Positions 1-43,412 of a stretch of DNA of 54,815 bases are shown here, piece by piece. How positions within the stretch are numbered: the stretch's first letter is position 1; the number at the start of each line of letters is the position of its first letter. The DNA comes from a virus (taxonomy: Duplodnaviria; Caudoviricetes): positions 1 through 54,815 of IMG/VR virus record IMGVR_UViG_3300021494_000060, one strand, 5' to 3'. Both the position numbers and the translations under genes were made by a program. The notes under the pieces are model-generated. The model was not told the DNA's origin. It made no database searches and saw only the letters and a list, made by a program, of their open reading frames with translations.

Positions 1-766
1 GAAGGATTATGAAATACTTCAAAAATATCTTGTCCAAAGAGATATTGATGCAATTGGTTACAAGGTAAGCTTTGACAGCGAAAGTGAAAAATTCATTGTT
101 AAAAATACTCAGGATGAAATAATTGCTGCTGAATCAAACAGAGACAAAGCATGGTTAACAGCATTTCAGGCTGAAGCCGCTGAATTAACCGAATGGCCGG
201 ATATGGCAAAACATGCCTTGATTGATTTCAGGAAAATGACCCGAAATTTATTTAAACATTATATTAAAGGCATGGAAGATATAATAAAAATGGCAAAAAT
301 GGCTGGAAAACCAGTGCCAAAAGTAAAAACCATTAAAGACGGAAAGATTGTTAAAATAAGCCTGAAAACTGCTATGCAAAAGATGGGCGACCGGCAGGGA
401 TATTATTTCCCGCGCATAAGAGAGTCCGGTGAATGGAGAGTTGAAGGCAAAAAGTCTGGTGTTCCAAGTGAGCTTAAATTCTTTCCAACTAAATTACAAG
501 CAAAACAATACATGCAATCTCTTGAAAGGAAAGGATATACAACAAAATTTACACATAAGGGTTTATTTTCTGAAGATTTATTCCAGACACTTGCACCGCT
601 GTTAGCACAGGAACAGATGATAAACAGTGTAATGGAAAGTATGGCAAAAAACGAAGATTTTGATAGTGCTTTTGCTGAAGTTTTTATTACTCAATATGCA
701 AATGAATTAAAAGGGCATGGCTCTCGCGCAAGGATGATCGGCCGTTCTGATGCAACAGGCATTGAC
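1..766. repeat. Terminal direct repeat, left copy (circular overlap)
   Basis: 1-766 matches 54050-54815 base for base apart from about 14 substitutions and no indels. Confidence 0.97.
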
Positions 767-2554
767 GTAAAAAGAGGCTATGAGACAGATATAATAAAGG
801 CTATAGCAGCAGCTACCGAAGCGGCAGCAGGCGGTTTTGCAAAACAGCAGATAGCAATTAATGGTTTAAAGACAATAACAGGACGTGATCTTTCATGGCC
901 GGAATTTCAGGAAAATAATCCGGCCAAAGATTACTCAGATTATCTGAATGTTGTAAGAAAACGTGGAATGGATGCCGCAAGGCAGCAAAAAGCATATAAA
1001 GAAGCAACTTCTGCATTACAGGATATCCTGAAAAACAGGGAATTTGCCGATAATATTATAGCAACAGCCAAAGGTATGGCTGTTGTATGGTATCTTGGAT
1101 TTCGTGTTTCATCAGCGGCAGTAAATGTTACCAATATGGCAATGGCAGTTCCTGCGGTTATGAATGGAGAATTAAAAGTTCCATTTAAAATTGCTTTTAG
1201 GCATATAATAAATGCAGGAAAGGATTATGGGAAATACAGATTAAAAAAACAGATTTCAGCAGATAAGGCAGCGGTCTTTTCAGAAATAGAAAAAAAGGGT
1301 TATGACGCCCCGCAATTTAACAGGGAAGCACTTGAAGCAATCCAGAACAAATATGCAAAAGCGTGGAACTGGCTGATTGAAAAATCAATGTGGATGTTTG
1401 GAGTAACAGAAAGAATTAACAGGGCAACAACTATTTTCGCCAATTATACAGCTTTATGCGAAAAGACAGGCAAAAAACTTGTTGATAAAGACGGCAATGT
1501 CCATGATGATATTTTAACCAAAGCAAAGGATACTTCTGATCTGGCTCATGGTGTCTATGGGAAAGAAGCAAGGCCATATCACATGAGAGGGGAACATATA
1601 GGTGCAAGAATTTTACAAATGACTTATGTTTTCCAGACTTTTGTCCATAATTATTTGCAGGAAATGCTCAGGCTTGGTCTTGTAAAAAAACAGTATGGCG
1701 CTGCTGCATACATGGCTTTATCCGGTGGGCTATTTGGGGGGATAGGAGCAACTATCCCAATGTTTATATTGAAGATAATCTTCAGCATGTTTGGCGGTGA
1801 TGACCCTGAAGAAGATATAATACAGGCTTTTGGCGGGAGTGATCTTGTAAGATATGGGTTGCCCGGGCTTGCAGGAATATCACTAAAAGGCAGTTTGGCG
1901 ATAAACTTTGATATGCCGGAAACAACTTTTGATTTATTAGGAGCTCCTGGCAGTGTTGTTGCTGATGTTTACGAAGGTACAAAAAATCTAACACAAGGTT
2001 TCTATCAGGAAGGCTTTGAAAAAATTGCACCAACAGCTATCGGTAACCTTTCACGGGGCTTGCGGGAATCAACAGAAGGTGTTACAACAAGAAACGGCAA
2101 GCCTGTATTCTGGGGCAGTGAACGTCTGAAAGGTGATACAGCTGATATGATATTAAGATGGCTGTCTTTCAGTCCTTCCGGCATTACGGAAAAAAGAGAA
2201 ATCCAATGGCATGATTATAAGATAAAATCTAAATACAGAGAGCGAAAAGCTTTACTGTATAAACGATTAAGACAGTTTTACATGGATTCTCCCAATCAAA
2301 GAGACCCTGCTGTTCTGGCTGAAATTATTGCTGATATGAACGATTTTAACGAAGAAATCAAGGCAAAAAATGCTGAAAAACTTGTTCCGTTGATAACAGA
2401 CAGATCAAGAAAGCAAAGCTTGAGATTGATAGAAACTGAAAAGGGAAAGCATAAGTCAACAATAAAACATAAAAATTTCAGTTACAGAACTCATTATGAA
2501 AAGCCTTACTCGCCTAAGAATCCAAAAGAATGGAGATATAAATATGCCAGTTAG
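2..2554 (+). CDS. C-terminal part of the giant DarB-like polyvalent virion protein (continues from 46758)
   Basis: The track ORF 203-2554 is in the same frame as the 46758 ORF once the 54049 offset is applied. It has a helical C-terminal region with hydrophobic segments, as seen in large ejection proteins. Confidence 0.85.
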   Translation, partial: KDYEILQKYLVQRDIDAIGYKVSFDSESEKFIVKNTQDEIIAAESNRDKAWLTAFQAEAAELTEWPDMAKHALIDFRKMTRNLFKHYIKGMEDIIKMAKMAGKPVPKVKTIKDGKIVKISLKTAMQKMGDRQGYYFPRIRESGEWRVEGKKSGVPSELKFFPTKLQAKQYMQSLERKGYTTKFTHKGLFSEDLFQTLAPLLAQEQMINSVMESMAKNEDFDSAFAEVFITQYANELKGHGSRARMIGRSDATGIDVKRGYETDIIKAIAAATEAAAGGFAKQQIAINGLKTITGRDLSWPEFQENNPAKDYSDYLNVVRKRGMDAARQQKAYKEATSALQDILKNREFADNIIATAKGMAVVWYLGFRVSSAAVNVTNMAMAVPAVMNGELKVPFKIAFRHIINAGKDYGKYRLKKQISADKAAVFSEIEKKGYDAPQFNREALEAIQNKYAKAWNWLIEKSMWMFGVTERINRATTIFANYTALCEKTGKKLVDKDGNVHDDILTKAKDTSDLAHGVYGKEARPYHMRGEHIGARILQMTYVFQTFVHNYLQEMLRLGLVKKQYGAAAYMALSGGLFGGIGATIPMFILKIIFSMFGGDDPEEDIIQAFGGSDLVRYGLPGLAGISLKGSLAINFDMPETTFDLLGAPGSVVADVYEGTKNLTQGFYQEGFEKIAPTAIGNLSRGLRESTEGVTTRNGKPVFWGSERLKGDTADMILRWLSFSPSGITEKREIQWHDYKIKSKYRERKALLYKRLRQFYMDSPNQRDPAVLAEIIADMNDFNEEIKAKNAEKLVPLITDRSRKQSLRLIETEKGKHKSTIKHKNFSYRTHYEKPYSPKNPKEWRYKYAS

Positions 2555-2720: not shown

Positions 2721-3224
2721 ATGACTAATGACAAAGCTTTTTCAAGGGGAAGTATCATAACTGTTATAAAACATGAAGATGGCAGGAAGGAAATAAGAAA
2801 AACACATAATTTAATAACAAATGACGGCGATCTTTATTGCACTGAAATGCTTGCAGGAGAAACGCCTACAAATGCTTTTGCAAACTGTGTTCTTGGAACT
2901 GGTTCAACAGCGGCAACCAAATCGGATACTTATGATAGTATGACTCCGATATCAGGATCGGAAAAAGCACCAAGTTCAGGTTATCCGAAAACAAACGATA
3001 CTGATTCTGATAATGATGGAAAGGGTGCGGATATCTGTACATGGAAGTATGAATGGGCAACAGGTGATTTTAACAATTCTGCTGTCCAAGAAGGTTGTAT
3101 AACTATAGCATCACCAACAACAGGCAGTAAAGTTTTTAACCGGTGGGTTGAAAGCTCAGCATATGAAAAATCTTCATCAGCAACATTAACACAATACGTT
3201 AATATTGAAATAACCGGCTCGTGA
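2721..3224 (+). CDS. Putative virion structural protein
   Basis: RBS GGAG; HNLITNDG and LGTGSTAAT motifs and S/T/G-rich composition typical of tail or baseplate-associated proteins. Confidence 0.6.
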   Translation: MTNDKAFSRGSIITVIKHEDGRKEIRKTHNLITNDGDLYCTEMLAGETPTNAFANCVLGTGSTAATKSDTYDSMTPISGSEKAPSSGYPKTNDTDSDNDGKGADICTWKYEWATGDFNNSAVQEGCITIASPTTGSKVFNRWVESSAYEKSSSATLTQYVNIEITGS

Positions 3225-3426: not shown

Positions 3427-3477
3427 TAGGGGTTTCACCCCTAAAACCCCAGTTAGGGGTTTCATCCCTAAAACTCC
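3427..3477. repeat. Dispersed GGGG/CCCC hairpin element, two tandem units, at the convergence of the two arms
   Basis: TAGGGGTTTCACCCCTAAAACCCC followed by TAGGGGTTTCATCCCTAAAACTCC. Confidence 0.9.
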
Positions 3478-4263: not shown

Positions 4264-4290
4264 TTTTTCACCTCCATAGGGGTTTCATCC

Positions 4291-5769
4291 CTAAAACCCC
4301 TTTTTTAAATTTATTTCCGCCAATGCAAGCTGACGTCCTATATACATGGCATGGTTTAAATCAGACACAGCCATATCTCTATAAATCTTATGCTGGATTG
4401 ATTCAGCCTTTCTGCCGCGATATTCATGTATTAAAAGACCGTCTTCAGTGCAGTGCCGTGCAATAATCTCATTCTTTTGCTTATCTACAGTAAAATTAAA
4501 GATCCCGTTAGGATCAGTTTTAATCGATGTTTTTCTATTCTTTACCAATAAAGCTGCTCTTGCAATGGTGCTTTCATCTAAGTCTATGCTTATGGAATTG
4601 CTTATAACGGTTATTGCTCCTGATTCCATACCTGTTTTATCTGCCACAAAATCCAGGATAGCCTTTAATCCGTAAAAGTTATATATCCAGGCATCGATAG
4701 CATTATGAGTACGGTAATTAGCAGTTAATGTCAATTTCTTTTCATAATATCGAAAAAAGAGAGACACTAAACATGGTGTGCTTTTCTCACCCCCCATATC
4801 ATTTCCGGTATCCCAAAGCGCTATAAAACATTTGCGGTCTTCGTTATCTTTTAGGAGTCTTTCAATAGCTGTTGTCAAACCATCTATGCCAAAATATGAC
4901 CTGACCCGATGCCCGTATGTATAAGAAACATCCGCAGGTTTTCCACCAGACAGGATATCTTTTTGATACAATTTTATTTTATCTTCGTTGAACCAGTATT
5001 TTAAAAGCCTTTGATCCGGATCTTTAACAGGTTGCTCTACTATGACTCTAACATTCTGTAATTCCTTCCGTCTGCCTTTTGCAAGACGCACGGTTCTGCC
5101 GAAGCGGTAAAGTATAAAAACCAGTTCTTCCCATGCTTGAACTACGTCTTTTTTTGTGATGGTAAAGGACGCTGGACTGCATGGTAAAGTGCTGATGCTG
5201 ACTTCAGGTAAAGGAACTTCTTTACGGCAGCTTAAAGAACGATTAATACTGGATACTCCTGAAAAATATTTCTTGGCAGTTTCAAGATTTTGATTGTCTG
5301 ATAATTCACCAAGATATGTAATTTCAGGTTTAGGTTTAAAATCTTCAGGCTTGACCAGCGAATCAAGTATACGAGTTCTGCCTATAATACGAACTGCCGG
5401 TATTGTTTGATTATTAAAATGATATGGCGAACTTTCCTTAACCTGTTCAACACCCTTGGTAAAAAAAGACACTAAATCCTCTAATGAACCGTAACGATTT
5501 CGCCCACAACAGACTAAATGAGTAATTTGCGGATTATAAAGCAGGTTTCTAATAAGATAAGGAAATCCATTGCCGCGCAGATTGCCAATAACAGCTATTT
5601 TAGAAAGATCAACACCAACTTCTGATAACCGCTTAACAACCCACTCTACACCTGACCAAAGAGTAACAACACCGATAAAACCTTCAGGATTTATTATTTT
5701 TAGTTTGTCTTTAAAATATAAAGGTTTAAATATGTACATGGTATGTTTCATAATTATATCCTGATTCAT
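4291..5769 (-). CDS. Thymidylate synthase-like protein with N-terminal MtrA-like and C-terminal DUF4346-like domains
   Basis: SYTYGHR, PCL catalytic Cys, R-T-H-N; N-terminal VTLWS...GNL...NPQI; C-terminal DPNG...HAMYIGRQL. Confidence 0.75.
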   Translation of the reverse strand: MNQDIIMKHTMYIFKPLYFKDKLKIINPEGFIGVVTLWSGVEWVVKRLSEVGVDLSKIAVIGNLRGNGFPYLIRNLLYNPQITHLVCCGRNRYGSLEDLVSFFTKGVEQVKESSPYHFNNQTIPAVRIIGRTRILDSLVKPEDFKPKPEITYLGELSDNQNLETAKKYFSGVSSINRSLSCRKEVPLPEVSISTLPCSPASFTITKKDVVQAWEELVFILYRFGRTVRLAKGRRKELQNVRVIVEQPVKDPDQRLLKYWFNEDKIKLYQKDILSGGKPADVSYTYGHRVRSYFGIDGLTTAIERLLKDNEDRKCFIALWDTGNDMGGEKSTPCLVSLFFRYYEKKLTLTANYRTHNAIDAWIYNFYGLKAILDFVADKTGMESGAITVISNSISIDLDESTIARAALLVKNRKTSIKTDPNGIFNFTVDKQKNEIIARHCTEDGLLIHEYRGRKAESIQHKIYRDMAVSDLNHAMYIGRQLALAEINLKKGF

Positions 5770-6502
5770 CTACCCCTAATCTTTGGTTTCTCATTTCAAG
5801 ACATTTTTGACATAAACTCCAGTTGCCGTTATGAATATACCCATCACAGTTTTTTGATCTGTATCCTAATATTTCCATAGCCTTGCATTTTCTCAAGTTT
5901 TCCTTTGATTTATTACCTGCTATACGGCCGGATTTATATATCTTCCTTTTTTCCAGCGAACCTGTATAGTTATGATATACTTGCAGCATTCTTTTGCATA
6001 TGCTTCTATTGCAACAGACTCCTTTGGTTGTCCGGCCGCAAATTTTACATCGTCCTATTTTGCGGTAACCATAACGGTATGGTGCAGCATCAAAGTTAAT
6101 ATCAGGAAATACTTTATCAGGATGTTTAGCTTTGAATTCTTCATACCTCTGCCGGTTTCTCTTCTTTCTTCTGTTATCTGCATATATTTTATACCGGCTT
6201 TTGTTATATTTAACATACCTGTAAGATGATAAATAAATCTGTTTGCAAATTTTCCTATCACAAACCTGCCTTTTTGTTCCATTGTAAGAAAATGATATTT
6301 TTCCACAGACTATACATTTGTAAACCAGTTTATAACCTTTACGGTAAGACACAGCATCAAAGTTAATATCAGGAAATGTTTTATCAGGATGCTTGGCCTT
6401 AAATTCTTCGTACCTCTGCCGGTTTCTTTTTTTTCTCCTGTTATCATCAGCTTTTGAACTGGACGGTATTACCTTTTGTATATTTCTTTTTTTTCTGTTC
6501 AT
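5726..6502 (-). CDS. Basic Zn-finger protein with an internal duplication
   Basis: DNRRKKRNRQRYEEFKAKHPDKxFPDINFDA occurs twice, 267 bp apart, each followed by CxxCG...C...C. Confidence 0.65.
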   Translation of the reverse strand: MNRKKRNIQKVIPSSSKADDNRRKKRNRQRYEEFKAKHPDKTFPDINFDAVSYRKGYKLVYKCIVCGKISFSYNGTKRQVCDRKICKQIYLSSYRYVKYNKSRYKIYADNRRKKRNRQRYEEFKAKHPDKVFPDINFDAAPYRYGYRKIGRCKICGRTTKGVCCNRSICKRMLQVYHNYTGSLEKRKIYKSGRIAGNKSKENLRKCKAMEILGYRSKNCDGYIHNGNWSLCQKCLEMRNQRLGVDESGYNYETYHVHI

Positions 6503-6525
6503 TTTTCTTATCCCCGCACTTCTTT

Positions 6526-8863: not shown

Positions 8864-9064
8864 TTACTTCTCCTCTCTTTGTTTGGGGGGTGGAACTTCT
8901 ACAAGAAAATCCAAATCTGCTGCATATTTATCCTGTAATTTTATAGGGGCGTTGCCCATAGGGGTTTCACCCCTAAAACCCCTATAACCCCGTAATTTTA
9001 ATAATATTGCCAATTCAATTATCAAGTTTGCTATTACCAGAACCAATATTATGATCTCAATCAT
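8864..9064 (-). CDS. Small membrane protein carrying an in-frame hairpin-repeat insertion
   Basis: Hydrophobic N-terminus; RGYRGFRGETPMGNAP is encoded by the repeat at 8941-8992. Confidence 0.55.
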   Translation of the reverse strand: MIEIIILVLVIANLIIELAILLKLRGYRGFRGETPMGNAPIKLQDKYAADLDFLVEVPPPKQREEK

Positions 9065-11315: not shown

Positions 11316-12558
11316 GTGACTACTCCGTCAGCTAAAGCAGACGGCTTCTATTCCAAAGAAAAGCTCTGTAGCCCCAGAGCTAAAATATTTAACGCCGCAT
11401 TATGATCTCTTTGAAGAGAAAAACCACAGCAAGGACAATGATACATACGATCAGACAATTTGAGCTTATGCCTGTTGCCACAATTGGAGCATATTTGACT
11501 TGTATAGGCAGGATTAACTTGAATGCAACGAGAACCGGCACACTCTGCCTTGTATCTCAAGCAATCAAGAAACATTCTCCATGCTGCGTCACCAATGCTT
11601 TTATTAATGCAACGAAAGTTATCTTTTTTCATGTCGTTGATAGACAAGTTTTCAACGACAATGGTGTTAAACCTGTTCACAAGTTTACGAGACTTTTGGT
11701 GAACAAAATTATGACGTTTCCAGTTAATTCTTTCGTATATACGAGCAACTATTTTACGGACTTTTGCTCTGGCTTTAGACGCTTTTTTCTGCACAGAAAG
11801 TTTACGTTGAGCTTTGGCAAGGGCTTTTTCTTCATGCTTGAAAAAGCGAGGGTTTTCAATCTGTTCCCCATTAGAAAGTGTGGCAAAAGATTCAAGCCCC
11901 ATATCAATACCGATAGATGGATTAATAGGCTGTTCAACAGGTTTATGTGCAATATCGCAGGCAAAGGTTACAAACCATTTTCCAGTAGGTGTTCGCCGGA
12001 CAGTGCAGGTTTTGATCTTACCTTCAATAGACCGGTGAAGTTTGATCTTGACACAACCAATCTTGGAAAGCCTGACAACATTTTTAAGAAGCCTGAAACC
12101 GGATTGAGGATAGGTAAAGGAATCATACCTTCCTTTACCTTTAAATCTTGGATATCCAGGCTTTTGACCAGCTTTTACACGTCTGAAAAAAGCTCTAAAT
12201 GCAAGGTCTATTCTGGTAGAAACATCCTGAAGTGTTTGACTGAAGATATTAGCCAAAAAGGGGTGTTCTATTTTGAGGGTTTTCAAAGTATTGCTTTGAT
12301 CATAGCGAGAAAGACTTTTCTTTTCCGTTTCCCACGCATTTTTGCGTTGCTCAAGAAAATGATTATACAACCAGCGACAGCCGTCAAGTGTTTGCTCAAG
12401 GACTGTGGCCTGCTTATGTGTTGGAAAAATTCTATAGCGAAAAGTTTTTCTCATGGTTTATACATATATCATAAAGTGTATAATAATGTCAAGAGAAATT
12501 TTGCAAAAAGGAACGGGCTTTCATCTGCCAACTAAAGTAGACAGTTTTCCCGCCTGTA
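11316..12558 (-). mobile_element. IS200/IS605-family tnpB-only (IS1341-like) element, about 1243 bp
   Basis: Subterminal hairpins at both ends; right end GAAGCCGTCTGCTTTAGCTGACGGAGTAGTCAC; TTAAT directly 5' of the left end; no tnpA. Boundaries are ambiguous by up to 3 nt. Confidence 0.85.
11348..12454 (-). CDS. tnpB: RNA-guided endonuclease TnpB
   Basis: HTH N-terminus, RuvC residues GIDMG / VVENL / RDHNAA all intact, Zn ribbon CSNCG...CPCCG. Confidence 0.95.
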   Translation of the reverse strand: MRKTFRYRIFPTHKQATVLEQTLDGCRWLYNHFLEQRKNAWETEKKSLSRYDQSNTLKTLKIEHPFLANIFSQTLQDVSTRIDLAFRAFFRRVKAGQKPGYPRFKGKGRYDSFTYPQSGFRLLKNVVRLSKIGCVKIKLHRSIEGKIKTCTVRRTPTGKWFVTFACDIAHKPVEQPINPSIGIDMGLESFATLSNGEQIENPRFFKHEEKALAKAQRKLSVQKKASKARAKVRKIVARIYERINWKRHNFVHQKSRKLVNRFNTIVVENLSINDMKKDNFRCINKSIGDAAWRMFLDCLRYKAECAGSRCIQVNPAYTSQICSNCGNRHKLKLSDRMYHCPCCGFSLQRDHNAALNILALGLQSFSLE

Positions 12559-13044: not shown

Positions 13045-14814
13045 TTATTCTACTTCTACCGCTTCCAGTATATATTCCGGCCAATACCTTCTATCCTTTG
13101 CAATACTATCAATTAAAGCCAAGTCTATAATATATACCTTTCCCCAGTCTGTTCTGCTTCTTACAATCCTGCCCATCATTTGAACGGATTCAAGAATCAT
13201 GCTGATCTTGTACCATAATTTCCCAATATCCGATCTATACAGACGCTGTGAAACCTGCTTGTCTTTCAGATTCAGAAATGGTGCTTTGCAGATTATCGCA
13301 AACCGTGCAAGATCATCAGGCAGATCAAGACCTCGACCGGACGAAGGTGAAACAAAAACCAGTCCGTTTACCTGTTTTTCTATAAAATTTTTTGTAACTA
13401 TATCCCGTGTCTGCATCTTTTCCTTATCATCTTTTTCCGGCTTGTGTGAAATCAGAACATGACCAGTTCTTTTTTTAAACACCCCCCTGTTTTTCATCAC
13501 CCAGCCGTTAATTTTCCATGAATGGGTATGTATAATGCCGCGTTGTCCTTTGTGATAAGTTAAAATCCTATCAATAGTTTTTAATAACTTTTCTTTATTT
13601 TCCTGTATATTATTTTCAATCTGCTTGAACCGCATATCAACAGGATTATCGGCTATAATTACCGGCCGGTTCTTTACAGGAAAATCCGATTTGATTTCCA
13701 AATAATCTATATCCTCGATCTTAATTCCCATTGTTTTGGCCACAATTTGCCGCGGCGGAAATGTTGCCGACATAAGAACGAACTTTTCAGCATGCCGCCA
13801 GAGATATTGTTCAGCAAACACTTCCGGCATCCAGAGAGGCTTCCATGAATAGGCCTTGACGCGGCCATATGAGTTTTTCTGCTCTTCAAATATCCAGTCT
13901 TCCGACACATGATTGAGAAAAATATTGATACGTTCCAGCATTCTTTTAGTTCTTTTAATGCTATTATTTAATTCCGTAAATCTTTCCAAATGAGATTTTT
14001 GTTTTTTATCAATGTCAGGCAGCTGCTTCAGAAGCTCATAAAGCTCAACTTTAACGGCTTCTCTTACCTCCCCTGCCCATTGTTTCCATAATTTCAAACC
14101 CTGCCCGTTTTGGGCGTTAGGCGTCTTAAACTTAGGAATCCCTTTTCCTATAGATTTAATCATGTTAATTGAAAATCTTAGCTCAATCATGCTTTGAAGC
14201 GTCTGATCTAATATATCGGCTTCATCGCAAATCCAGAGAGGAGTATCTGCAGAAAATTGACCGATATAATTGACTTCATTCAAAATATAGGCATAGTTCA
14301 AGATCCTGACAGGATTTAAAAGAGCAGTGATTTTATGTTTTTTATATTCACAAGTTTCTTTCTTTTGCGGCGGACAGGTTTCATAAACGCAATCTTCTGC
14401 TGTTAATGACGGCATATAATTACATTTAAAGTTTGCCCTGCCTTTCATAACACTTGCTGTTGGAAAGTCTGACTGAAGTTGAGACTGAAGCTGAATACCG
14501 TTGCAGATATAGTTAAAATGAAGTTTATGCCCAGAAGCAGTGTTTTTATTATCTTTATCTTTGTTTTTATTATCTTTCATTGCCGCTCCATATAACGCCG
14601 CTCCATATAACATCCCTGCAAGACTCTTCCCGCTTCCGCACGGTGCGCAGATTATAGACACCTTGCATTTTGAATTATTCAAAAACCGCAATATCTTTAA
14701 CTGCTGCGGATATAACTTGCGATTCCTGAATTTCTGAAACAATAAGTCTGTTTGATATAATTTTAAGTATTCAGATTTTTGCATATCCATTCCTTCCATT
14801 TCTTTTCCTTCCAT
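13045..14814 (-). CDS. DinG/Rad3-like SF2 helicase
   Basis: APCGSGKS Walker A, KGRANFKC Fe-S Cys region, CDEAD, MSAT, GLDLP, QMMGRIVRSRTDWG. Confidence 0.9.
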   Translation of the reverse strand: MEGKEMEGMDMQKSEYLKLYQTDLLFQKFRNRKLYPQQLKILRFLNNSKCKVSIICAPCGSGKSLAGMLYGAALYGAAMKDNKNKDKDNKNTASGHKLHFNYICNGIQLQSQLQSDFPTASVMKGRANFKCNYMPSLTAEDCVYETCPPQKKETCEYKKHKITALLNPVRILNYAYILNEVNYIGQFSADTPLWICDEADILDQTLQSMIELRFSINMIKSIGKGIPKFKTPNAQNGQGLKLWKQWAGEVREAVKVELYELLKQLPDIDKKQKSHLERFTELNNSIKRTKRMLERINIFLNHVSEDWIFEEQKNSYGRVKAYSWKPLWMPEVFAEQYLWRHAEKFVLMSATFPPRQIVAKTMGIKIEDIDYLEIKSDFPVKNRPVIIADNPVDMRFKQIENNIQENKEKLLKTIDRILTYHKGQRGIIHTHSWKINGWVMKNRGVFKKRTGHVLISHKPEKDDKEKMQTRDIVTKNFIEKQVNGLVFVSPSSGRGLDLPDDLARFAIICKAPFLNLKDKQVSQRLYRSDIGKLWYKISMILESVQMMGRIVRSRTDWGKVYIIDLALIDSIAKDRRYWPEYILEAVEVE

Positions 14815-14948: not shown

Positions 14949-15043
14949 ATAGGGGTTATAGGGGTGAAACCCCTATGAGATTATAGGGGAAGCGCCCCTA
15001 ACTGGGGTTTTAGGGATGAAACCCCTACTGTTCTTGCCCCCTA
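14949..15043. repeat. Cluster of three or more dispersed hairpin elements
   Basis: GGGGTTATAGGGGTGAAACCCCTA; TAGGGGAAGCGCCCCTA; GGGGTTTTAGGGATGAAACCCCTA. Confidence 0.85.
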
Positions 15044-16171: not shown

Positions 16172-16222
16172 AGGGGCGCTGCCCCTATAACCCCATAGGG
16201 GTTTCACCCCTAAAACCCCCTA
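16171..16222. repeat. Dispersed hairpin element, two units
   Basis: TAGGGGCGCTGCCCCTATAACCCC and TAGGGGTTTCACCCCTAAAACCCC. Confidence 0.9.
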
Positions 16223-16293: not shown

Positions 16294-16995
16294 TTACTTT
16301 CCATGCCATACATTCCAGAATTTTATAGCATGATCCACCACAAAGCGCTTCAGATAATCTCTGCCAGGGTTAAAATAAATATGAATACCCCAGCGTACCC
16401 TCATGCTTATTAAGCTTTGTCTGATCATCTCAGGCGTTATTTTGCTGTATATACTGCCCTTCATTAACTCTTCTTCTGCAGCTTCAATTATTAATCCTAC
16501 CCAGCCGCCACGATTAATCATATGTTTAAACCGTCCTAACTTATGAACGGTTTTTGTGTTCCTCTCCTTTCCAATATACGCAAGAAAATCGCTGATCATT
16601 TTCCGTTCGATTGTAAAAAGATTCTCAAGCCCCAAGATGCTGTAATCACCGTTGTAAAGAGCCTGGTTAATGAACGGAACTTTATCCGCTGTTTTTAGAA
16701 TCATAGTAGCGGTATCGTTTTTATTTTCAGCTTTTTTATTATCATCAGCTTTATTTCCGGTTTTATTTCCGGTTTTATTTCCAGTTTTTTTATTATCAAC
16801 GTTTTTGTTTTCAGTCTTATTTTTACCTATTTTTTTAGACACCCCCCTGTCTTTTTTATCCACTGTCTTTACTTTTTTCTTTTTTTTCTCAACGAACAGT
16901 TTTATATGTTCGCTGACATCCTGCACAATAATCATACCATCCGGTATTTTATAAGGTTTAATATAATCAGAAATATCATTGATATCCTTGAACAT
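16294..16995 (-). CDS. ERCC4-domain nuclease (resolvase-like) with a low-complexity insert
   Basis: IVQDVSE...GDYS...TIERKMISDF...IIE motifs; K/N-rich insert. Confidence 0.8.
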   Translation of the reverse strand: MFKDINDISDYIKPYKIPDGMIIVQDVSEHIKLFVEKKKKKVKTVDKKDRGVSKKIGKNKTENKNVDNKKTGNKTGNKTGNKADDNKKAENKNDTATMILKTADKVPFINQALYNGDYSILGLENLFTIERKMISDFLAYIGKERNTKTVHKLGRFKHMINRGGWVGLIIEAAEEELMKGSIYSKITPEMIRQSLISMRVRWGIHIYFNPGRDYLKRFVVDHAIKFWNVWHGK

Positions 16996-18610: not shown

Positions 18611-19690
18611 TTATTTCTTATCTTTATTCTTATTCTTATTTTTATCTTTATTCTTATCTTTCCGTTTCCTAATTTGATACAACTCCTCACTTACCGCACC
18701 ACTTTTAAATATCGGATAATATTCACAGCGGTACGGATGCTTACAAGCCCTAAAATTCTTCAGCCATGAATCATTATCAACTGTTACCCTCATGTCCTTG
18801 AACACATCACGGTATATCATACGAATCCTGTCCAGCGCAAACTCCGACTTGTAAAACTTTTTCCCAAATTCCCTCTCTTTCTTATTATACGCTGAAAAAT
18901 AATGTTTAGGTCTTTTCATTATATCTTTATACATTCTATTAGCATATCCTTCTATAGCCTCGTTCGGCTTAATCCTTAACATTGGAACACGGGTTACTTC
19001 CATGCTGACTCCTAACCAGTTTTTTCCCCGAGTTTCATCCAATAGATATGTTCCGGCCTGAAGCTCAATGTTTTCTTTCTCTAAAAAATCACCAGGTCGC
19101 GCCGACAGTTTCGTTTCCACGATATAATCAGGATATGCACGGTCTGCATAACCTATAACCAATTGCTCGCCTATATTAAAAAAAATCTGATACTGAAACT
19201 CTACAAATTCTTTTTTATACTCTTCGCAATATTTCCCGCGCATTCCGAGTTCCTGGAAAGCCATAATCAGTGCATGAACTTTAGCCAGATTTTCCTCATA
19301 CAGCAGTTCATGTTCCGGTATGTCAAAAACCCCTTCTATATCAGCCATATTCTGGAAATATCTATCCCATATGACTCCCATAAGCATAGCCTGAGATTTC
19401 TTCTCCGGCTTTACTTCCAGCCCGATTACATGCTTTAGCCAGAACTTATGCTTGCATTGGCAGTAATCCAGAATAGCTGAAACCGAAAGTGCCGGTAATC
19501 TGTACTGCATGTCTTTCACACACAGCCAGCGGTTTGGAAGCCCGCAGAGCCGGACAGCTTTAGAATCAGCTTTCTTGTTATATTTCAGCAGATGAATACA
19601 TCCCTTGCCGTTCTTTTTTTTTACCTGCTGAATGCAGTTTATGGTAGTACAGTTTATATCTGAATTTATATCTGAGTTTTCAATAGTCAT
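18611..19690 (-). CDS. PD-(D/E)xK Cas4-like / RecB-family exonuclease
   Basis: LSVSAILDYCQC, GYADR...IVETK, QAGTY, C-terminal C...C.Y. Confidence 0.8.
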   Translation of the reverse strand: MTIENSDINSDINCTTINCIQQVKKKNGKGCIHLLKYNKKADSKAVRLCGLPNRWLCVKDMQYRLPALSVSAILDYCQCKHKFWLKHVIGLEVKPEKKSQAMLMGVIWDRYFQNMADIEGVFDIPEHELLYEENLAKVHALIMAFQELGMRGKYCEEYKKEFVEFQYQIFFNIGEQLVIGYADRAYPDYIVETKLSARPGDFLEKENIELQAGTYLLDETRGKNWLGVSMEVTRVPMLRIKPNEAIEGYANRMYKDIMKRPKHYFSAYNKKEREFGKKFYKSEFALDRIRMIYRDVFKDMRVTVDNDSWLKNFRACKHPYRCEYYPIFKSGAVSEELYQIRKRKDKNKDKNKNKNKDKK

Positions 19691-19965
19691 TATGCAACCT
19701 GTCCATTAAATATCTGTCCATTAAACACCTGAAATTGTTTATAAAATTCTTCAATAAGCGATCTTTTGCTCTTTACATCCAGATCGATAACAAGATCAAG
19801 CACGCATTCTTCGCATAAGTTGATAACCAAACCGCCCACCCTTACAGCAACTACACTCTCCCGCCATTTGCAGGCATCGCATACCCTGAACTGCTCTGCC
19901 TCCTTAACTTCTATTACCGTCATTTTTGCCATCTTTGCCATCCCCATTTCCGTCAAAAGCCTCAA
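19690..19965 (-). CDS. Small Zn-finger protein
   Basis: CDAC...LCEEC; start codon uncertain. Confidence 0.55.
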   Translation of the reverse strand: MRLLTEMGMAKMAKMTVIEVKEAEQFRVCDACKWRESVVAVRVGGLVINLCEECVLDLVIDLDVKSKRSLIEEFYKQFQVFNGQIFNGQVA

Positions 19966-20164
19966 AGATTTTTTTCCAATCTGCCTTTGCCGGTTTTTTC
20001 AGGAAAATCTCAAACAATTTTCCTCTTAATTCAGCGTGCATATTCGTACGCCCGAGTATTTCCCCTTCGTCATAACCATCATCATAACCGGCGTCATAAC
20101 CTGCGTCATAACCTGCATCATAGCCATTATCATAGCCATCTGTTCCGTCTATTGCATATTTCAC
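19904..20164 (-). CDS. Hypothetical protein with GYDx repeats
   Basis: 12-bp tandem repeat encoding GYD(N/A/D/E) six times; start overlaps the stop of the Csx16-like gene. Confidence 0.6.
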   Translation of the reverse strand: MKYAIDGTDGYDNGYDAGYDAGYDAGYDDGYDEGEILGRTNMHAELRGKLFEIFLKKPAKADWKKIFEAFDGNGDGKDGKNDGNRS

Positions 20165-20451
20165 CTTTCACACCTCCTTACAATATAAGTTACTGGTTTT
20201 CCTGCGTATTTCCTAACATCTCCAGCCGTCAGTTCCTTGCCACGCAACTCAGCAGGCAATCGAAGCGGAACTTCAGTAAAACTCGCCGCCAGACAGGACA
20301 GGCTATGAGGCAAAACACCGATAACATGCCTGTTCGTAACGACTTCAGAGGTTGCGTGTGCGATCACCTCTACATTATCGCCTACAATTCCTTCTTCTTT
20401 CAGGTATTCCACTAACCCGTTATGCCGGGTTACTATTAATTTTTCCCCCAT
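20161..20451 (-). CDS. csx16: Csx16 (Cas_VVA1548)-like protein, putative cyclic oligoadenylate ring nuclease
   Basis: IVTRH.G.VEYL...VIAH...VIGVLP...L.LPAELRGKELT...Y.V follows the Csx16 motif order over its full 96 aa; AAGGAG RBS. Confidence 0.75.
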   Translation of the reverse strand: MGEKLIVTRHNGLVEYLKEEGIVGDNVEVIAHATSEVVTNRHVIGVLPHSLSCLAASFTEVPLRLPAELRGKELTAGDVRKYAGKPVTYIVRRCER

Positions 20452-20470
20452 TTTTTATCTCCTTTCTTTC

Positions 20471-20698
20471 CTATTCTATATTTTCGGCATGTAATAAAGT
20501 AAAGGAACGGTGTTTTATTTTTACGAATACTGCTCCTTTATCGTTATCGCTGATTTTTATTTTTTTTCTCTCACCTGGTTTTAATTGTATTGTTTCTGGG
20601 AAATTTGTTACCGTAACAGAAAACGTAGAAACGTTTTCTGTATTGTTTTGTATCCAAAACTCTGTTTTTTTGTCTGTTGTTATTGTTATTATTCTCAC
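20471..20698 (-). CDS. Small early hypothetical protein
   Basis: GTG start with AAGGA RBS directly after a repeat element. Confidence 0.6.
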   Translation of the reverse strand: MRIITITTDKKTEFWIQNNTENVSTFSVTVTNFPETIQLKPGERKKIKISDNDKGAVFVKIKHRSFTLLHAENIE

Positions 20699-20718
20699 TT
20701 TTTATTTCCTTTCTTTCC

Positions 20719-20806
20719 AATAAAAAAGGCGCACCTCACCTTTATAGTGAAATACGCCTTTGAGTTGACCGGTTTTATGACCAGTCGGTTCGGTGGCTAT
20801 TATTTT
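20719..20806 (-). ncRNA. Duplicated two-hairpin intergenic element, copy 2
   Basis: Near-identical to 21275-21358; stem changes are compensatory. Confidence 0.6.
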
Positions 20807-21018
20807 ACGTAAACAAAATGGCGGTGTTCCAATATTACACAGAACGCCGTCTTTTTCTGCATTTCTATTTTTCTAATCTCATACGGCTCTAACCGTATGA
20901 GATCGTTTTCTTTCTTTCGAGCCGCTATAGTTGCGACTCGAATAGTGGCGTAGCTTTCTGAGTCATTGCAGGCCCAAAAAAAAATTTTCTTTTCCCCAAA
21001 CATTATTGTTTTCTCCAT
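20800..21018 (-). CDS. Small early hypothetical protein
   Basis: AAGGAG RBS; 72 aa. Confidence 0.65.
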   Translation of the reverse strand: MEKTIMFGEKKIFFWACNDSESYATIRVATIAARKKENDLIRLEPYEIRKIEMQKKTAFCVILEHRHFVYVK

Positions 21019-21032
21019 ATTTCTCTCCTTTC

Positions 21033-21260
21033 TTAGACGCCTAAAAGACGCCCTATCTCTTCTAATGTATCAATGTCCGTGCACTTGTTGAACATATCAC
21101 GGATCTGCCTCTTTCTTTTCGCCACGCTGACGCCGTGGCGCACCTCTACTTTTGATATCCCGACGCCACGTCTAAAAAGGGCTAAGGCATCTGAGTCGAG
21201 GTGGTCGGAGCGACAGTGCGCCCCGTCGTCGAACTCAACGAATATGTAGCTGTTTTTCAT
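21033..21260 (-). CDS. Small early hypothetical protein
   Basis: AAGGA RBS; 75 aa. Confidence 0.65.
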   Translation of the reverse strand: MKNSYIFVEFDDGAHCRSDHLDSDALALFRRGVGISKVEVRHGVSVAKRKRQIRDMFNKCTDIDTLEEIGRLLGV

Positions 21261-21274
21261 TTTTTCTTCCTTCT

Positions 21275-21358
21275 AATAAAAAGGCGCACCTCACCTTAGT
21301 GAGATACGCCTTTGAGTTGACCGTCTTTAGTGACGGCCGGTTCAGTGGCTATTATTTT
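21275..21358 (-). ncRNA. Duplicated two-hairpin intergenic element, copy 1
   Basis: GGCCGTC-ACTAAA-GACGGTC then AAAGGCGTATCTCAC-TAAG-GTGAGGTGCGCCTTT plus a U-tract. Confidence 0.6.
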
Positions 21359-21600
21359 TTTTTATGACGGATACCATCAAACTCCGTGACGCACCCATCG
21401 CTGGTACAGTGCCCCCAACGCCCCTTGAGCTCCCATCTGCAAAAGGTGGAAGTTGAGCCCGGAGCCAGCTTAAAAAAGTCATCTTTTTTCAAGGTGATTT
21501 CGTCGCCCAAAACCCTGTCAAGGCTTCGGGCGGCTACCGCCGCCAGTTTCGGCTCGATATGAGAATCGACCCAAAAATCATTAATGCTAAAGTTTTTCAT
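21352..21600 (-). CDS. Small early hypothetical protein
   Basis: AAGGAGG RBS before ATG 21600 (MKNFSIND...), shorter than the track call. Confidence 0.65.
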   Translation of the reverse strand: MKNFSINDFWVDSHIEPKLAAVAARSLDRVLGDEITLKKDDFFKLAPGSTSTFCRWELKGRWGHCTSDGCVTEFDGIRHKKK

Positions 21601-21841
21601 TTTCTTACCTCCTTTTTTTATGCAGTGCAACATGACATGCCCTGCACAGAATTTGTAAGTTTTCCGGTGTCGTCTTTCCACCTTCTGACACCGGAATTAT
21701 ATGGTGTGGCTCAGCACTGATCATCGTCAGTGCGACGCCACACCGCGAGCAGGCATAACCCGCCCCGCATTTTTTTCTCCTTTTTTTGCTCCGGCTTAGG
21801 GCTGTTTTTACCCTCCGGTGACCGGAGGGGTGAATCGGCCA

Positions 21842-22069
21842 CTATTCAAATAGCGGTCTTAACTCTCTGTAACCTATATCGCCAGGGAAAAACCTGGCGA
21901 TATGACCATTCCTGACCCTGCGCTCTCCCAGGTCGGACAAAACCGATCTGGGTGCAGGTATGTCTGTTTTTTGGGTGCTTACCTCAATACAGCTCGAACC
22001 CCACCTTGTATCTGGATGGTCGGGTTCAAAAGTCGTCAGTCTGGCATAAATTTCTTTTTCTTTTTCCAT
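21842..22069 (-). CDS. First early hypothetical protein
   Basis: AAGGAG / GAGGG RBS; 75 aa. Confidence 0.6.
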   Translation of the reverse strand: MEKEKEIYARLTTFEPDHPDTRWGSSCIEVSTQKTDIPAPRSVLSDLGERRVRNGHIARFFPGDIGYRELRPLFE

Positions 22070-22160
22070 TTTTTCCCTCTCCTTTCTTTTGTCGAACTGC
22101 CGAGTTTTCCTCGACAGTTCTTTTTATTGTTATTTTTTTTCGCTTTTTAGTTATCTATAT

Positions 22161-22177
22161 TGCACACCCTGTGCCAA
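22161..22177 (-). promoter_or_regulatory. Sigma54-type (-24/-12) promoter for the leftward early arm
   Basis: Minus strand TTGGCAC-AGGGT-GTGCA fits TGGCAC-N5-TTGC(A/T) with correct GG-to-GC spacing, about 90 bp before the first early gene. Confidence 0.6.
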
Positions 22178-22453
22178 ACCCAACTTTCCCGCCAAACATT
22201 ATAACCATACCATATATTGATTTTTCCTGCTTTCCACCACAAGAAAAAAAACATTTAAAGCCAGTCATTTCGGCGTTTTTGAAGCCAAACATACTTAAAC
22301 TATTGTATTTATTATAAAAAACACCATTTAAAAAAATTAGACAAAAATACAAAACAAGACATTTCCGCTGGTTTTGTCCTTGCCTACCGGCCGGCAGGTA
22401 TCTAAACTTTTGTGTTCTTGAACTTTTTTTATTTTTTTTTCTTGACTTTTTCA

Positions 22454-22521
22454 GAATATTAACGAATATTAAAGAATAATGAAGAATATTAACGAATATT
22501 AACGAATAATAGCGAATAATA
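22454..22521. repeat. Seven degenerate 10-bp tandem repeats (GAATATTAAC) upstream of terS
   Basis: GAATATTAAC GAATATTAAA GAATAATGAA GAATATTAAC GAATATTAAC GAATAATAGC GAATAATA. Confidence 0.85.
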
Positions 22522-22541
22522 TCAGGTATATAAAAAAAATA

Positions 22542-39795: not shown

Positions 39796-42700
39796 TAAAA
39801 ATGCCTGACGAAAAATCAGACTGGATAAAACTTGGTGATCTTGCGCAGAGAAAACAACCTGGAACATTACCGGAAGCTGTTCATAATGATAGGACGGACT
39901 GGGTAAAAGGCACTAAACCTGTAGATTTTATTCCAGAAACTGAAAAGCCTGATGCCTCATGGAATATTGCCAGAGGCTTAAAGTCGGGATTACTGACTAC
40001 AGCCGCAACATTGCCTGCGTTACAATCAATGGCTTTCCAGGCAGGAGGCTTGAAAACAGCAGCGGAAGAATCGGCAAAAACCGCTCAGATCTTTTCAAAA
40101 GAAGCAGAAAAATATCAGCCTGACACTTCGTTTAAAGAGCTGGCAAAAGACCCGTCATGGCATGGATTGCTTGATTATGGTTTATATACTCTTGGTTCTT
40201 TGTTGCCAAGCGCGATGTTTGGTTTGGGAGGCGGCGCAATAGGTGAAAAAGCTGCAACAAAATTAATCTCACGGAAAACTCTTGAAAATCTTGCAAAAAA
40301 GAATCTCGCTAAAGGGTTAACAAAAGAAGCTGCTGTAGAAGCCGCTGTTAATACAATTGCAAAAAGAGGCGCAGCGGCTGGTATTATCGGCTCAACAGCC
40401 GCTTTTGAAGGAACGGGGATGTATCTTACCGATTATGAAAAACATGGTAGAGATGCCCGTGTCCTTCCACATGTACTTGGCGGGTTAGCTGCTGGTGCAG
40501 TAGAACTTGGTCTTGGCGGAGTAGAATTAGGTCTTGTAAAAAAAATGTTTGGCAGAACTGCTGCTAAAGTAGCTGCTAAAAATCCTGAAATCGGTAAAAG
40601 TCTTTTGCACAAAGCAGCAGGAATAGTAAAAGAATCGGCAGGTGAAGCAGCAGAAGAATTAACTCAGGAAGAAATTGCAATCCTGAATGAAATGTATGTT
40701 GCCAAGCCTGGTGAAAAAACAGTAACACCGTTATCAAAAGAAGGTTTATGGAGAGCAGCAGAAGCAAGTGCAGCAGGTTTTATAGGAGGTGTGCCGTTAA
40801 GTACGCTAAGTGCGGCAATGCCAACAAAAGAACAGGAAACTGAACAAGAAACTGATAATCTTATTAACAGGCAGCGTGCAGAAGATGATTTAAGAACGAA
40901 AATAACAAAGAGTGCAGTTGATGAATATGTTAATGAAGCCAGCGCAGGTGTTAAGTTCCGTCCTGCTCCAAGACCTTCCACAGCAGAAGAAGCTGCAAGA
41001 GTTTTTGAAAGAGAACTTCCGCCCGATGTACGCAGTGCAAGAGAAGCCGCAGAGACTTTTATAAAGGAAGGAACAACAATTGAAAGAGCGGCTAAAGAAC
41101 GGCAGCGTATAATTGATAAAACATATCTGCCTGCTGAAGAAGAAGCTGACAGAAGAAAACTTGCTGAAGAACAAAGACGTAAGGCTATTAAAGAACGTGA
41201 AGGAGGAATTTATGAAGTACCGGAAAAAGGGTTTGAATTTCCAGTCATTGAAGAAGAAAAAAAAGAAGAGCCTGAAACAGTCAAAAACGAAATAGCAGGT
41301 ATTGAAAAACAGATCAAGGAAAGAACAGAACGGCTTGCGGCTGAAACTAAAGGACGAAAAAGATCAGAATTGGCAAGAGAATTGTCGGTTCTGCATAAAA
41401 ACCTTGCAGATAAAATGGCTTCGTTAGCAGAAATCAAAAGAGGTAGTAGAGAAGCTCCTGAAAAAGGAGTAAAGTTTGCATCTTCTTTTAAAGAAATCGA
41501 GATACCTCCTGAACTTCCTGATCTTGAAGGCACAAACAAGCAGAAAAATTGGGCTTATGATATTCGTTCTGAATATGTTACAAGAATGAACGAATTAACC
41601 GGCAGAATGATGAAAACCTTTCTGGGAAGAACAGTAGGGGTTTCACCCCTAAAACCCCAGTTTAATTATGATAGATTCAAGCAGATTGCAGAAGAAAAAG
41701 CTAAAAATACTGATGCGTCATGGTGGATAGATAATCGGAATAAACTCAAAATAAAAGACTTGATAAAAGAAGCCAGAACACCTTCAAGAATATCTGATAA
41801 ACTTCAAAAAGCCAAAGAAGATATTGAATTCGCAGAAATTACAGAAGGAAGCCCGAAACAGATTAAATGGGCGGGAAAAATACGGTCGGATGCCATAGGT
41901 AATATATTAGGTACTTCAAAAGAAAAAACAGAAGAAGAAGCAGACGCGTTAGATATTGAAAATTTTGAATATGACAGTTTCATTGAATTTCTAAAAACAA
42001 AAGTATTTAATAATACTTCTGCAAAATGGTGGATAGACAACAGAAGCAGCCTTAACATATATGATTTGTTAGACAATATGGAGGATGAGTATAATAAATG
42101 GGTTGATGAAACTAAAACCAAAACTAAGACTGAAGAAAAACCTAAAGTTGAACCAGAGCCTAAAATTAAAACTGAACCAGAACCAGAACCTGAACCTGAA
42201 ATTGAAGATAGCACTGTCAGTGTTGAAATGTCTGCAAAAGAAGCAGAAACATTGACATTAAAAGAACAGAAAAAATATCTGCTTGCCGAAATTGAAAAAG
42301 CTAAAGAACAGGCATCAGATGAAAAGCCTGAGCCAATTCCTTTAAAGCTCCAAAAGGCTATAAAGAAATCAGGCCGAACAGATAAAAAAAACACTGCTAT
42401 AGATGCTATAGATAAGATATATGAAAGGAACAAGGCCAGATTTGGAACAATAACAATAGAAGTTCCGGGCGATGGTGATTTTACCATTATAAACACAAAA
42501 CAGTCGTTAGATGAATTTAAGAAAAAAGCAAAAAAATTTCCGGAAACAGAAGAAATGCCGGAAACTCTCGTTAAAGAGCTTCCAAAATTAAAACCTTCAG
42601 AAAAAAGAGTCTCCGGTGAAGGTATAAGTTATTACAATCCTTTCAGAGTAAGAAAAAGAACATTAAAGGCTTTACCTGTAGATACACAAAAGAATAAATG

Positions 42701-43352: not shown

Positions 43353-43412
43353 TAGGGGGTAAACCATAGGGGTTTCACCCCTATAACCCCAACAACCCCC
43401 TATAACCCCCGA
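43352..43412. repeat. Dispersed hairpin element cluster
   Basis: TAGGGGTTTCACCCCTATAACCCC plus partial units. Confidence 0.85.

Follow-up and report, generated by a model that had tools for sequence, protein, structure and literature searches.

The 54,815-bp stretch of DNA analysed here, hereafter the window, is a complete IMG/VR virus record in which a sequence element of ~85 nt stands twice amid small early accessory genes, and the question raised by this locus is what such an element does there. The genes of the minus strand extend from ~22,350 down to 3,500, the structural genes are encoded on the plus strand from 22,542 onward, and both copies of the element (copies A and B) lie on the minus strand. 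Each copy is a module composed of a conserved 5' block, a first hairpin, a short linker and a second hairpin that is followed by a U-tract. Our analysis shows that the module is an undescribed family of predicted structured RNAs with clean covariation. In all probability it acts as a regulated stop signal and, at the same time, labels the sites of cassette swaps. The two copies in the window are built as follows.

21354-21274, minus strand: copy A of the module (sequence and fold; 102.3 bits with covariance model R1)
21354-21352 (TAA) and 21351-21349 (TAG), minus strand: double stop of copy A
21349-21339, minus strand: 5' block of copy A, GCCACUGAACC
21338-21319, minus strand: hairpin 1 of copy A, GGCCGUC/GACGGUC with loop ACUAAA
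21318-21314, minus strand: linker of copy A, AACUC
21313-21280, minus strand: hairpin 2 of copy A, 15 bp (predicted terminator hairpin), with U-tract and tail to 21274
20802-20719, minus strand: copy B of the module (sequence, fold and terminator scan; 109.1 bits with R1)
20802-20800 (TAA) and 20799-20797 (TAG), minus strand: double stop of copy B
20797-20787, minus strand: 5' block of copy B, GCCACCGAACC
20786-20767, minus strand: hairpin 1 of copy B, GACUGGU/ACCGGUC with loop CAUAAA
20766-20762, minus strand: linker of copy B, AACUC
20761-20725, minus strand: hairpin 2 of copy B, 16 bp (predicted terminator hairpin), with U6 tract and tail to 20719

The original prediction, made from the sequence of the window, had described two copies that extend from a TAATAG double stop to the next ribosome-binding site (RBS), and this description was confirmed. 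In both copies, the G of the upstream gene's TAG is base 1 of the block GCCACYGAACC, and the U5-6 tract at the module end is followed 8-15 nt on by the RBS and start of the next gene. The details given for the internal structure were likewise correct: hairpin 1 differs in sequence between the copies and keeps its pairing around an A-rich 6-nt loop, hairpin 2 (15 bp in copy A and 16 bp in copy B) contains G-U pairs on the minus strand and precedes a U-tract, and the single strands GCCACYGAACC and AACTC are conserved in both copies.

The repeat formed by copies A and B is far beyond chance. The pair appears in the repeat listing as D5 (62 nt with 84% identity at a spacing of 552) and D7. For the 19-mer GGTCAACTCAAAGGCGTAT, two exact occurrences stand against 0.02 expected, a count that was reached in none of 100 shuffles, and TAATAGCCACYGAACC has two exact occurrences in the window and one three-mismatch match elsewhere. 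A BLAST search of copy A against the whole record returned copy A itself and copy B alone (86% identity, E 1.8e-23). On the minus strand, copies A and B fold with -36.8 kcal/mol (z -6.81) and -33.4 kcal/mol (z -5.46), respectively, values that none of 200 shuffles equalled, whereas the plus-strand folds (z -2.83 and -1.90) were matched by 2 and 8 of 200 shuffles. Because the minus-strand z values lie far beyond those of the plus strand, the structure is strand-specific, as the G-U pairs predict. Two pairs of hairpin 1 are changed on both sides between copies A and B and two on one side, and all of them still pair. The full 15-bp stem of hairpin 2 in copy A was taken from the fold and not from the terminator scan, which reported copy B with 16 pairs and copy A as a 6-pair inner hairpin only.

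The module is a family and not a local duplication. Using patterns derived from the conserved parts and then covariance models R1 and R2 (strict patterns, cmsearch default filters), we found seven full copies in five records: besides the window, these are two IMG/VR phages, a fragment from a metagenome and a phage-like contig of a metagenome-assembled genome (MAG). All seven fold with z values from -5.3 to -7.5. The copies outside the window, together with one partial copy, are the following.

G001 (IMG/VR phage, 57,593 bp), 6434-6520: copy C, 93.1 bits
G001, 14725-14813: copy D, 59.6 bits
G001 (L024), 16557-16640 (-): terminator-only copy
G002:C3 (39-kb contig in a MAG labelled Candidatus Syntrophoarchaeum): copy E, 73.7 bits
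G003 (IMG/VR phage, 46,878 bp, with terminal repeats): copy F, 64 bits, hairpin-1 loop UUCG
L079 (1,541-bp metagenome contig): copy B', 101.3 bits

Apart from L079, the carriers are barely related and have almost no proteins in common. Comparison of the window with G001 gave seven matches between open reading frames (ORFs), one of them a spurious antisense pair; with G002 there was a single match, and the matches to G003 are few, weak and structural. The sole protein cluster found in four carriers is an MT-A70 methyltransferase. G002:C3 is phage-like, encoding a terminase large subunit, a single-stranded DNA-binding protein (SSB) and an O/DnaD-like initiator. Its SSB is of the bacterial type and ends in DDIPF, and this contig (L052) may be a bacterial phage binned with an archaeon.

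Real loci made up 1 of 20 in the scan of genome contigs (one genome per species) and 1 of 28 in metagenomes, and the scans of viral contigs identified only G001 and G003 as carriers; the window's own record may have lain outside these scans. One further pattern scan gave no locus and three gave no member beyond G001; in one of these three, the three non-G001 loci were chance matches in coding sequence, and in another, the two non-G001 loci were ordinary terminators. We rejected the possibility that the element is a host genomic repeat, as the 20 loci of the genome scan are about the number estimated by chance and only the phage-like contig L045 is a member; a candidate in a deltaproteobacterial MAG (L031) was also dismissed as a chance match (z +0.62). 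Nor is the element a marker of the window's phage lineage, because none of 80 loci with relatives of the window's large terminase subunit (TerL; 49-97% identity; 823,457 bases) carries it. One of these loci (L121 in G004) contains a diverged look-alike of 22-26 bits in a similar position, which was excluded from all counts. A blastn search with positions 19500-22500 of the window yielded no match among deposited phages. The Infernal searches proposed with the original prediction, run on pattern-selected loci and against Rfam, gave copies in unrelated phages and no Rfam match at gathering score: over the whole window, Rfam 15 had no match at gathering score and only sub-threshold matches around the copies (E 3.9-7.3), and over the other copies there were four sub-threshold matches, one of which lies over copy E with 23.2 bits against a gathering score of 88.

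The seven full copies were aligned with MAFFT, and the resulting alignment (A5) was not fitted to any model. Pairing is present in 98.0% of its 153 cells, compared with 34-54% when the partners are slid, and 9 of the 22 pairs change on both sides (22 cells). In none of 500 shuffles was the observed pairing or the observed covariation score matched, and RNAalifold, unaided, found the same two hairpins. Together with the strand-specific folds, these results uphold the prediction of a structured RNA with covariation. Five of the seven pairs of hairpin 1 show two-sided changes between copies, with an A-C mismatch in one more copy, and its loops vary over 4-6 nt (ACUAAA, CAUAAA, GUUUA, AAUAAU, AUAAAA and UUCG). 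The distal five pairs of the second hairpin covary or wobble. Little or no variation among the seven copies is seen in GAACCG, in two pairs of hairpin 1 (the outer G-C and the third, C-G), in CAA(C/A)UCA(A/C)AGGCGUA and in the 3' sequence CGCCUUUU..AUU, and the single strands around hairpin 1 read GYCAYNGAACC upstream and AAMUC downstream. Since homogenisation by recombination would also have homogenised hairpin 1, constraint appears to act on the sequence of the flanks and, in the hairpin, on shape alone. The distinctive part of the module is the block with hairpin 1 and the linker, not the terminator base.

Hairpin 2 has every sequence feature of an intrinsic (Rho-independent) terminator and thus supports the terminator component of the original prediction: the stems are 15-16 bp long in all seven copies, with six G-C pairs, and the tails are U5-U7. 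Between positions 3000 and 23500 of the minus strand, copies A and B are the only strong terminator-like sites, the others listed having 5-7 pairs. All intercistronic copies start 0-7 nt past the upstream stop codon and end at an RBS, and copies E and F each stand behind the first gene of their operon. The operon diverges from the terminase genes in the window, in G001 (copy D and the partial copy) and in G002; in G003, the terminase is 7.8 kb away. Copy C is placed differently. It starts ~15 nt behind a sigma-70-like promoter (10/12: TTGACA, 16 nt, TG-extended -10) that diverges from a Cro/YdaS-like helix-turn-helix (HTH) gene (below Pfam cut-offs). No ORF separates the promoter from the copy, and downstream lies a leftward operon whose ORF translations suggest recombination functions. 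In the window, a promoter scan detected a 9/12 match that overlaps the stop codons of copy A and none for copy B; ahead of the remaining copies other than copy C, inspection by eye showed weak promoter-like sequences or none. The ~8-15 nt between terminator and RBS are too short for a promoter. The terminator-only copy of G001 is flanked on both sides by an 18-nt direct repeat, CCGGTCATTGGRGAGGTA, which coincides on one side with the last nucleotides of the upstream gene and on the other with the region where ribosomes would bind for the next gene; the arrangement looks like the insertion of a terminator into a tight gene junction.

The genes flanking copies A and B are small and mostly without family match, and are listed below with csx16.

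21352-21600, minus strand: 82-aa gene, copy A opening at its stop codon; no match to a family above cut-off
21033-21260, minus strand: 75-aa gene directly downstream of copy A, ATG at 21260
20800-21018, minus strand: 72-aa gene whose stop codon opens copy B, missing from a variant contig in run X1
20471-20698, minus strand: 75-aa gene directly downstream of copy B, GTG at 20698, weak immunoglobulin-like matches, all below cut-off
20161-20451, minus strand: csx16 (Cas_VVA1548, PF09652; E 4.8e-18, 65.6 bits, cut-off 25), the second gene after copy B

The C-terminal 32 aa of the 75-aa gene product at 21033-21260 resemble part of the ORF preceding copy D in G001, and beyond csx16 lie genes for a Sak4-like protein and, with a match below cut-off, for a PD-(D/E)XK-like nuclease. 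Csx16 is treated among the ring nucleases of type III CRISPR (clustered regularly interspaced short palindromic repeats) loci, and a phage-borne csx16 may therefore be an anti-CRISPR.

Comparison of the cassette content in relatives, also proposed with the original prediction, revealed mosaic neighbours around the element. L079 is 88% identical to the window over 815 nt, a stretch that takes in both 75-aa genes and, between them, the 72-aa gene and copy B'. There, csx16 is replaced by a zinc-ribbon gene that is a homologue of the gene preceding copy E in G002, a different gene stands before the first 75-aa gene, and copy A is absent. As L079 keeps the element with csx16 replaced, and as only copy B stands upstream of csx16 in the window, the proposed link between the element and csx16 is incidental. 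Among the sequencing runs searched, no RNA run contained the region. We also examined contigs of four DNA runs that cover positions 19500-22500 of the window, three labelled hydrothermal vent metagenome and one marine sediment. In two runs, the 75-aa gene (21033-21260) is directly followed by a copy of the element with the 5' block GCCAAAGAACC and new hairpin-1 arms, in which pairing is largely kept. Contig joints were found at 20715, 20699 and 20771, and a joint from 20743 to 21298 would fuse copies A and B, its shorter side being only 23 letters. Several larger rearrangements of the same small genes were also present among these contigs. Of the earlier proposal that the element is a homology handle for exchanging cassettes, the part that stands is that cassettes are permuted in related contigs, and these observations weakly suggest that the conserved module may serve in such swaps.

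The reading that we favour, tentatively, is that the module is a factor-gated terminator that also acts as a recombination linker. The module would be transcribed within the leftward early operon as a cis-acting RNA of ~85 nt. Its 3' half would be a strong Rho-independent terminator at which RNA polymerase stops by default, giving rise to short immediate-early transcripts with a double-hairpin 3' end. The 5' half would be a recognition site, in which a hairpin free in sequence and kept in pairing is clamped by invariant single strands and a basal G-C pair. The conserved strands that flank the foot of hairpin 1 would be bound by a factor acting in trans, which would set how much transcription or stable RNA reaches the downstream accessory cassettes, the conserved 5' half governing read-through, processing or stability. 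The ~45 conserved nucleotides, common to unrelated phages that exchange small genes, would also be homology patches for the insertion, loss and permutation of cassettes. The constrained single strands around a free hairpin, together with the position of copy C behind a promoter without a gene, suggest that something recognises the site. Because no candidate protein is common to the carriers, a host factor is the simplest candidate, and the gating factor is most likely host-encoded; the BLAST comparison revealed no shared partner protein among the carriers beyond the MT-A70 methyltransferase, although a small, fast-evolving N-type protein would escape it.

Several points weigh against a gated terminator with a linker function. 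No gating factor was identified among the carrier proteins. The base and tail of the terminator are generic, since the pattern GGCGTA..CGCCTTTTTTATT matches another 43 viral loci in which the hairpin-1 block is missing, the best of them scoring 25.9 bits. The case for a terminator is strong but draws on sequence features, from which termination is predicted, and a leaky constitutive terminator would also fit most copies. The linker function is only weakly supported by the contig joints: 5 of the 24 listed joint ends lie in or within 20 nt of a copy against ~2 estimated by chance, a modest enrichment, and short-read contigs break at repeats. Finally, an antiterminator helix between the 5' block and the terminator base did not hold up. 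When the folds stop short of the 3' arm, all seven copies show pairing of the 5' block with UC and GGC(G) in the 5' arm of the terminator. These pairs never vary, and shuffled 5' blocks form as many pairs in 118-253 of 500 cases and reach as low an energy in 22-189 of 500. The helix is not above chance, and we therefore regard it as an idea, not as evidence.

The first of the rival explanations, possible though we consider it doubtful, is plain punctuation of the operon by a constitutive, perhaps leaky, intrinsic terminator, which would be spread by recombination and require no gating factor, as a counterpart without a promoter of the promoter-early stem-loop (PeSL) cassettes discussed below. 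The upstream hairpin would then only space the terminator from the terminating ribosome and protect the 3' end. The clear terminator features, the extent of the intercistronic copies from just past a stop codon to an RBS, the mosaic neighbours, the generic terminator base and the failure to find a partner protein are all consistent with this explanation. However, it accounts neither for the invariant single strands of 11 nt and 5 nt beside a hairpin that has changed at five of its seven pairs nor for copy C, which stands behind a strong promoter without a gene to terminate.

In another rival explanation, the module is a small RNA, transcribed from its own promoter (as for copy C) or cut from the 3' untranslated region of the upstream mRNA, with the single strands as seeds for a host or phage target and the terminator as its 3' end. 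The arrangement in G001, in which a promoter is followed by ~90 nt and a terminator without an ORF, is that of a small RNA gene, and the U6-7 tail and the conservation of single strands while the stems are free would also fit. We nevertheless think this unlikely. Promoters are weak or absent upstream of the other copies, only copy A having a 9/12 match; the presumed seed has three degenerate positions; and no target stands out in the window, where 7 sites match the block with at most one mismatch and 5.97 would be expected.

A conditional terminator of a further class is also improbable in our judgement. In such a class, the invariant strands would form a pocket, or an antiterminator helix would capture GGCG, and the RNA would sense a host protein or small molecule that arises from infection or defence signalling, so that cassettes for anti-defence, csx16 among them, would be expressed only on demand. 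The module would at the same time be a portable recombination joint of anti-defence cassettes in unrelated phages of one habitat.

We give still less weight to an RNA processing site resembling the early RNase III sites of T7 or lambda sib, at which a host endoribonuclease would separate the mRNAs of the cassettes and set their stability. The intercistronic position between early genes suits such a role, as do the two adjacent stable helices and the conserved flanks, which could be cleavage determinants, but hairpin 2, with just 15-16 bp and a U-tract, carries the signature of a terminator and is unlike the ~20-bp T7 stems with internal loops.

It is highly improbable that the module acts at the DNA level, as a promoter with a spacer stem-loop, as a palindrome bound by a protein or as one end of a small transposable element: two conserved boxes around a variable segment of 17-20 nt are superficially like -35 and -10 elements, and the window contains a TnpB-like gene and the terminator-only copy is flanked by an 18-nt duplication, but the box spacing differs by 3 nt between copies, the boxes show by eye no resemblance to sigma-70 hexamers or to extracytoplasmic function (ECF)-type spacing, the G-U pairs leave the hairpins imperfect on the opposite strand, the stems differ between copies to a degree that a sequence-specific DNA binder or transposase would not tolerate, and the giant ORF of the window is DarB-like and not a virion RNA polymerase. 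The candidates rejected outright were an N4-type hairpin promoter for a virion RNA polymerase, in view of the DarB-like giant ORF (phrog_10089, 1625.9 bits); an ECF- or sigma-70-type promoter with a hairpin spacer, in view of the 3-nt variation in box spacing; a CRISPR-repeat mimic, as the stems differ between copies and the sole match to a CRISPR direct repeat lies elsewhere (E 7); and a tRNA-like element, as ARAGORN detected none.

To the extent of the available text of two papers, the nearest described kind of element is the PeSL cassette of T4-type phages, a repeated intergenic cassette of up to ~100 nt between small non-essential early genes, whose defining feature is a strong early promoter, sigma-70-like and preceded by an AT-rich region, and which reaches ~50 copies per genome within one phage group (PMC2839356, Arbiol et al. 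2010; PMC4122927, Comeau et al. 2014). On that account, the module resembles PeSLs in its extent from stop codon to Shine-Dalgarno sequence, in its stem-loop terminator with G-U pairs, in being a conserved cassette that flanks ORFans, and in its proposed role as a homologous-recombination linker that shuffles ORFan cassettes. It differs from the PeSL so described in that a promoter of this type is absent and in that the copies number 1-3 per genome across phages sharing almost no genes.

The lambda nutR-tR1 and nutL sites and the HK022 putL and putR sites are promoter-proximal RNA sites of early operons, and both stem-loops of put act on the polymerase. Like these sites, the module combines a conserved single strand, a hairpin and a terminator close downstream, and copy C lies right behind a leftward early promoter and next to a Cro-like gene. 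The nut-like antitermination site of the original prediction was nevertheless not borne out. By eye, nothing in the 5' block GYCAYNGAACC resembles the lambda boxA consensus; loop conservation of the boxB type is absent, the loops differing even within one phage (GUUUA and AAUAAU in G001, ACUAAA and CAUAAA in the window); and neither an N-like protein nor a shared small protein was identified among the carriers. The module shows no evident sequence similarity to nut or put and has no Rfam match. The difference from put is that the second hairpin of the module is itself the predicted terminator.

RNase III sites of T7 have longer stems with internal loops and no U-tract. The module resembles them as a structured RNA that punctuates a polycistronic early transcript and would leave hairpin 3' ends, and differs in its shorter stems and its U-tract. 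The RAT (ribonucleic antiterminator) sites of BglG/SacY-type proteins, the ANTAR dual hairpins and small riboswitches are switches between antiterminator and terminator. In common with these, the module is a conserved element abutting a predicted intrinsic terminator, with a possible alternative helix that uses the terminator 5' arm; it differs in that this helix is not above chance and in that no Rfam riboswitch or leader matches. In the ANTAR motif, two hairpins carry 6-nt loops whose first nucleotide is A and whose fourth is G, and the second hairpin overlaps the terminator. This loop pattern is missing from the hairpin-1 loops of the module, which are 4-6 nt long.

The early accessory regions are where phages keep anti-defence genes, represented in the window by csx16, a DarB-like giant protein and several methyltransferases, and the timing and exchange of such genes are poorly understood outside T4 and lambda. 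If the module is a gated terminator, it would be a compact and portable control element with a recognition site of only ~45 nt. If it is mainly a linker, the PeSL idea of cassettes with recombination joints would extend beyond T4-type phages and across lineages. Under either reading, the module provides a searchable marker for accessory-gene cassettes of uncultured phages.

The window has several other features. Between copy A and the start of the early operon, in the region 21605-22069, the first gene of the operon (75 aa, 21842-22069, minus strand) closes with a TAG codon, and a 78-codon open frame in phase with this codon contains a complete HNH motif (..HHIIPVSEGGKTTPENLQILCRACHVALHKKRR). 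A stable hairpin (21800-21840) begins a few nucleotides after this TAG. The region may be either an HNH endonuclease gene split by a nonsense codon or a case of stop-codon read-through. At 22443-22522, where the early operon and the putative small-terminase gene (assigned by reading, with no PHROG match) diverge, there are six to seven tandem 10-bp units (AGAATATTAA / CGAATATTAA) that look like iterons or operators.

A second repeat family is formed by the 22-nt hairpin-forming sequence GGGGTTTCAYCCCTAAAACCCC, with nine copies at three mismatches or fewer against 0 expected.

3429-3450, 3456-3477, 4279-4300, 8961-8982, 14952-14973 (-), 15004-15025 (-), 16198-16219, 41637-41658 and 43369-43390: copies of GGGGTTTCAYCCCTAAAACCCC

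These copies are mostly in the larger intergenic gaps of the leftward array, often by a related GGGGCG..CCCCTATAACCCC motif, and their orientation is independent of gene direction. The family could represent a DNA site, for instance a promoter or operator specific to the phage, by which the array is partitioned into units. Also inside the leftward array is the TnpB-like gene (11348-12454, minus strand), whose product has HTH_OrfB_IS605, OrfB_IS605 and Cas12f1-like TNB domains; no TnpA was seen in association with this gene. The DarB-like antirestriction ORF identified by the phrog_10089 match (46758-54815, plus strand) contains methyltransferase and helicase regions and is still open at the 3' end of the record, and at the 5' end another open frame comes in (2-2554, plus strand). 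Should the record be circularly permuted, both would be parts of a single protein of ~3,536 aa. Finally, four tandem 12-nt units at 20064-20135 (minus strand) encode a (D/G)GYD repeat in an 86-aa protein (gene 19904-20164), which has weak matches to Yae1_N and phrog_4785.

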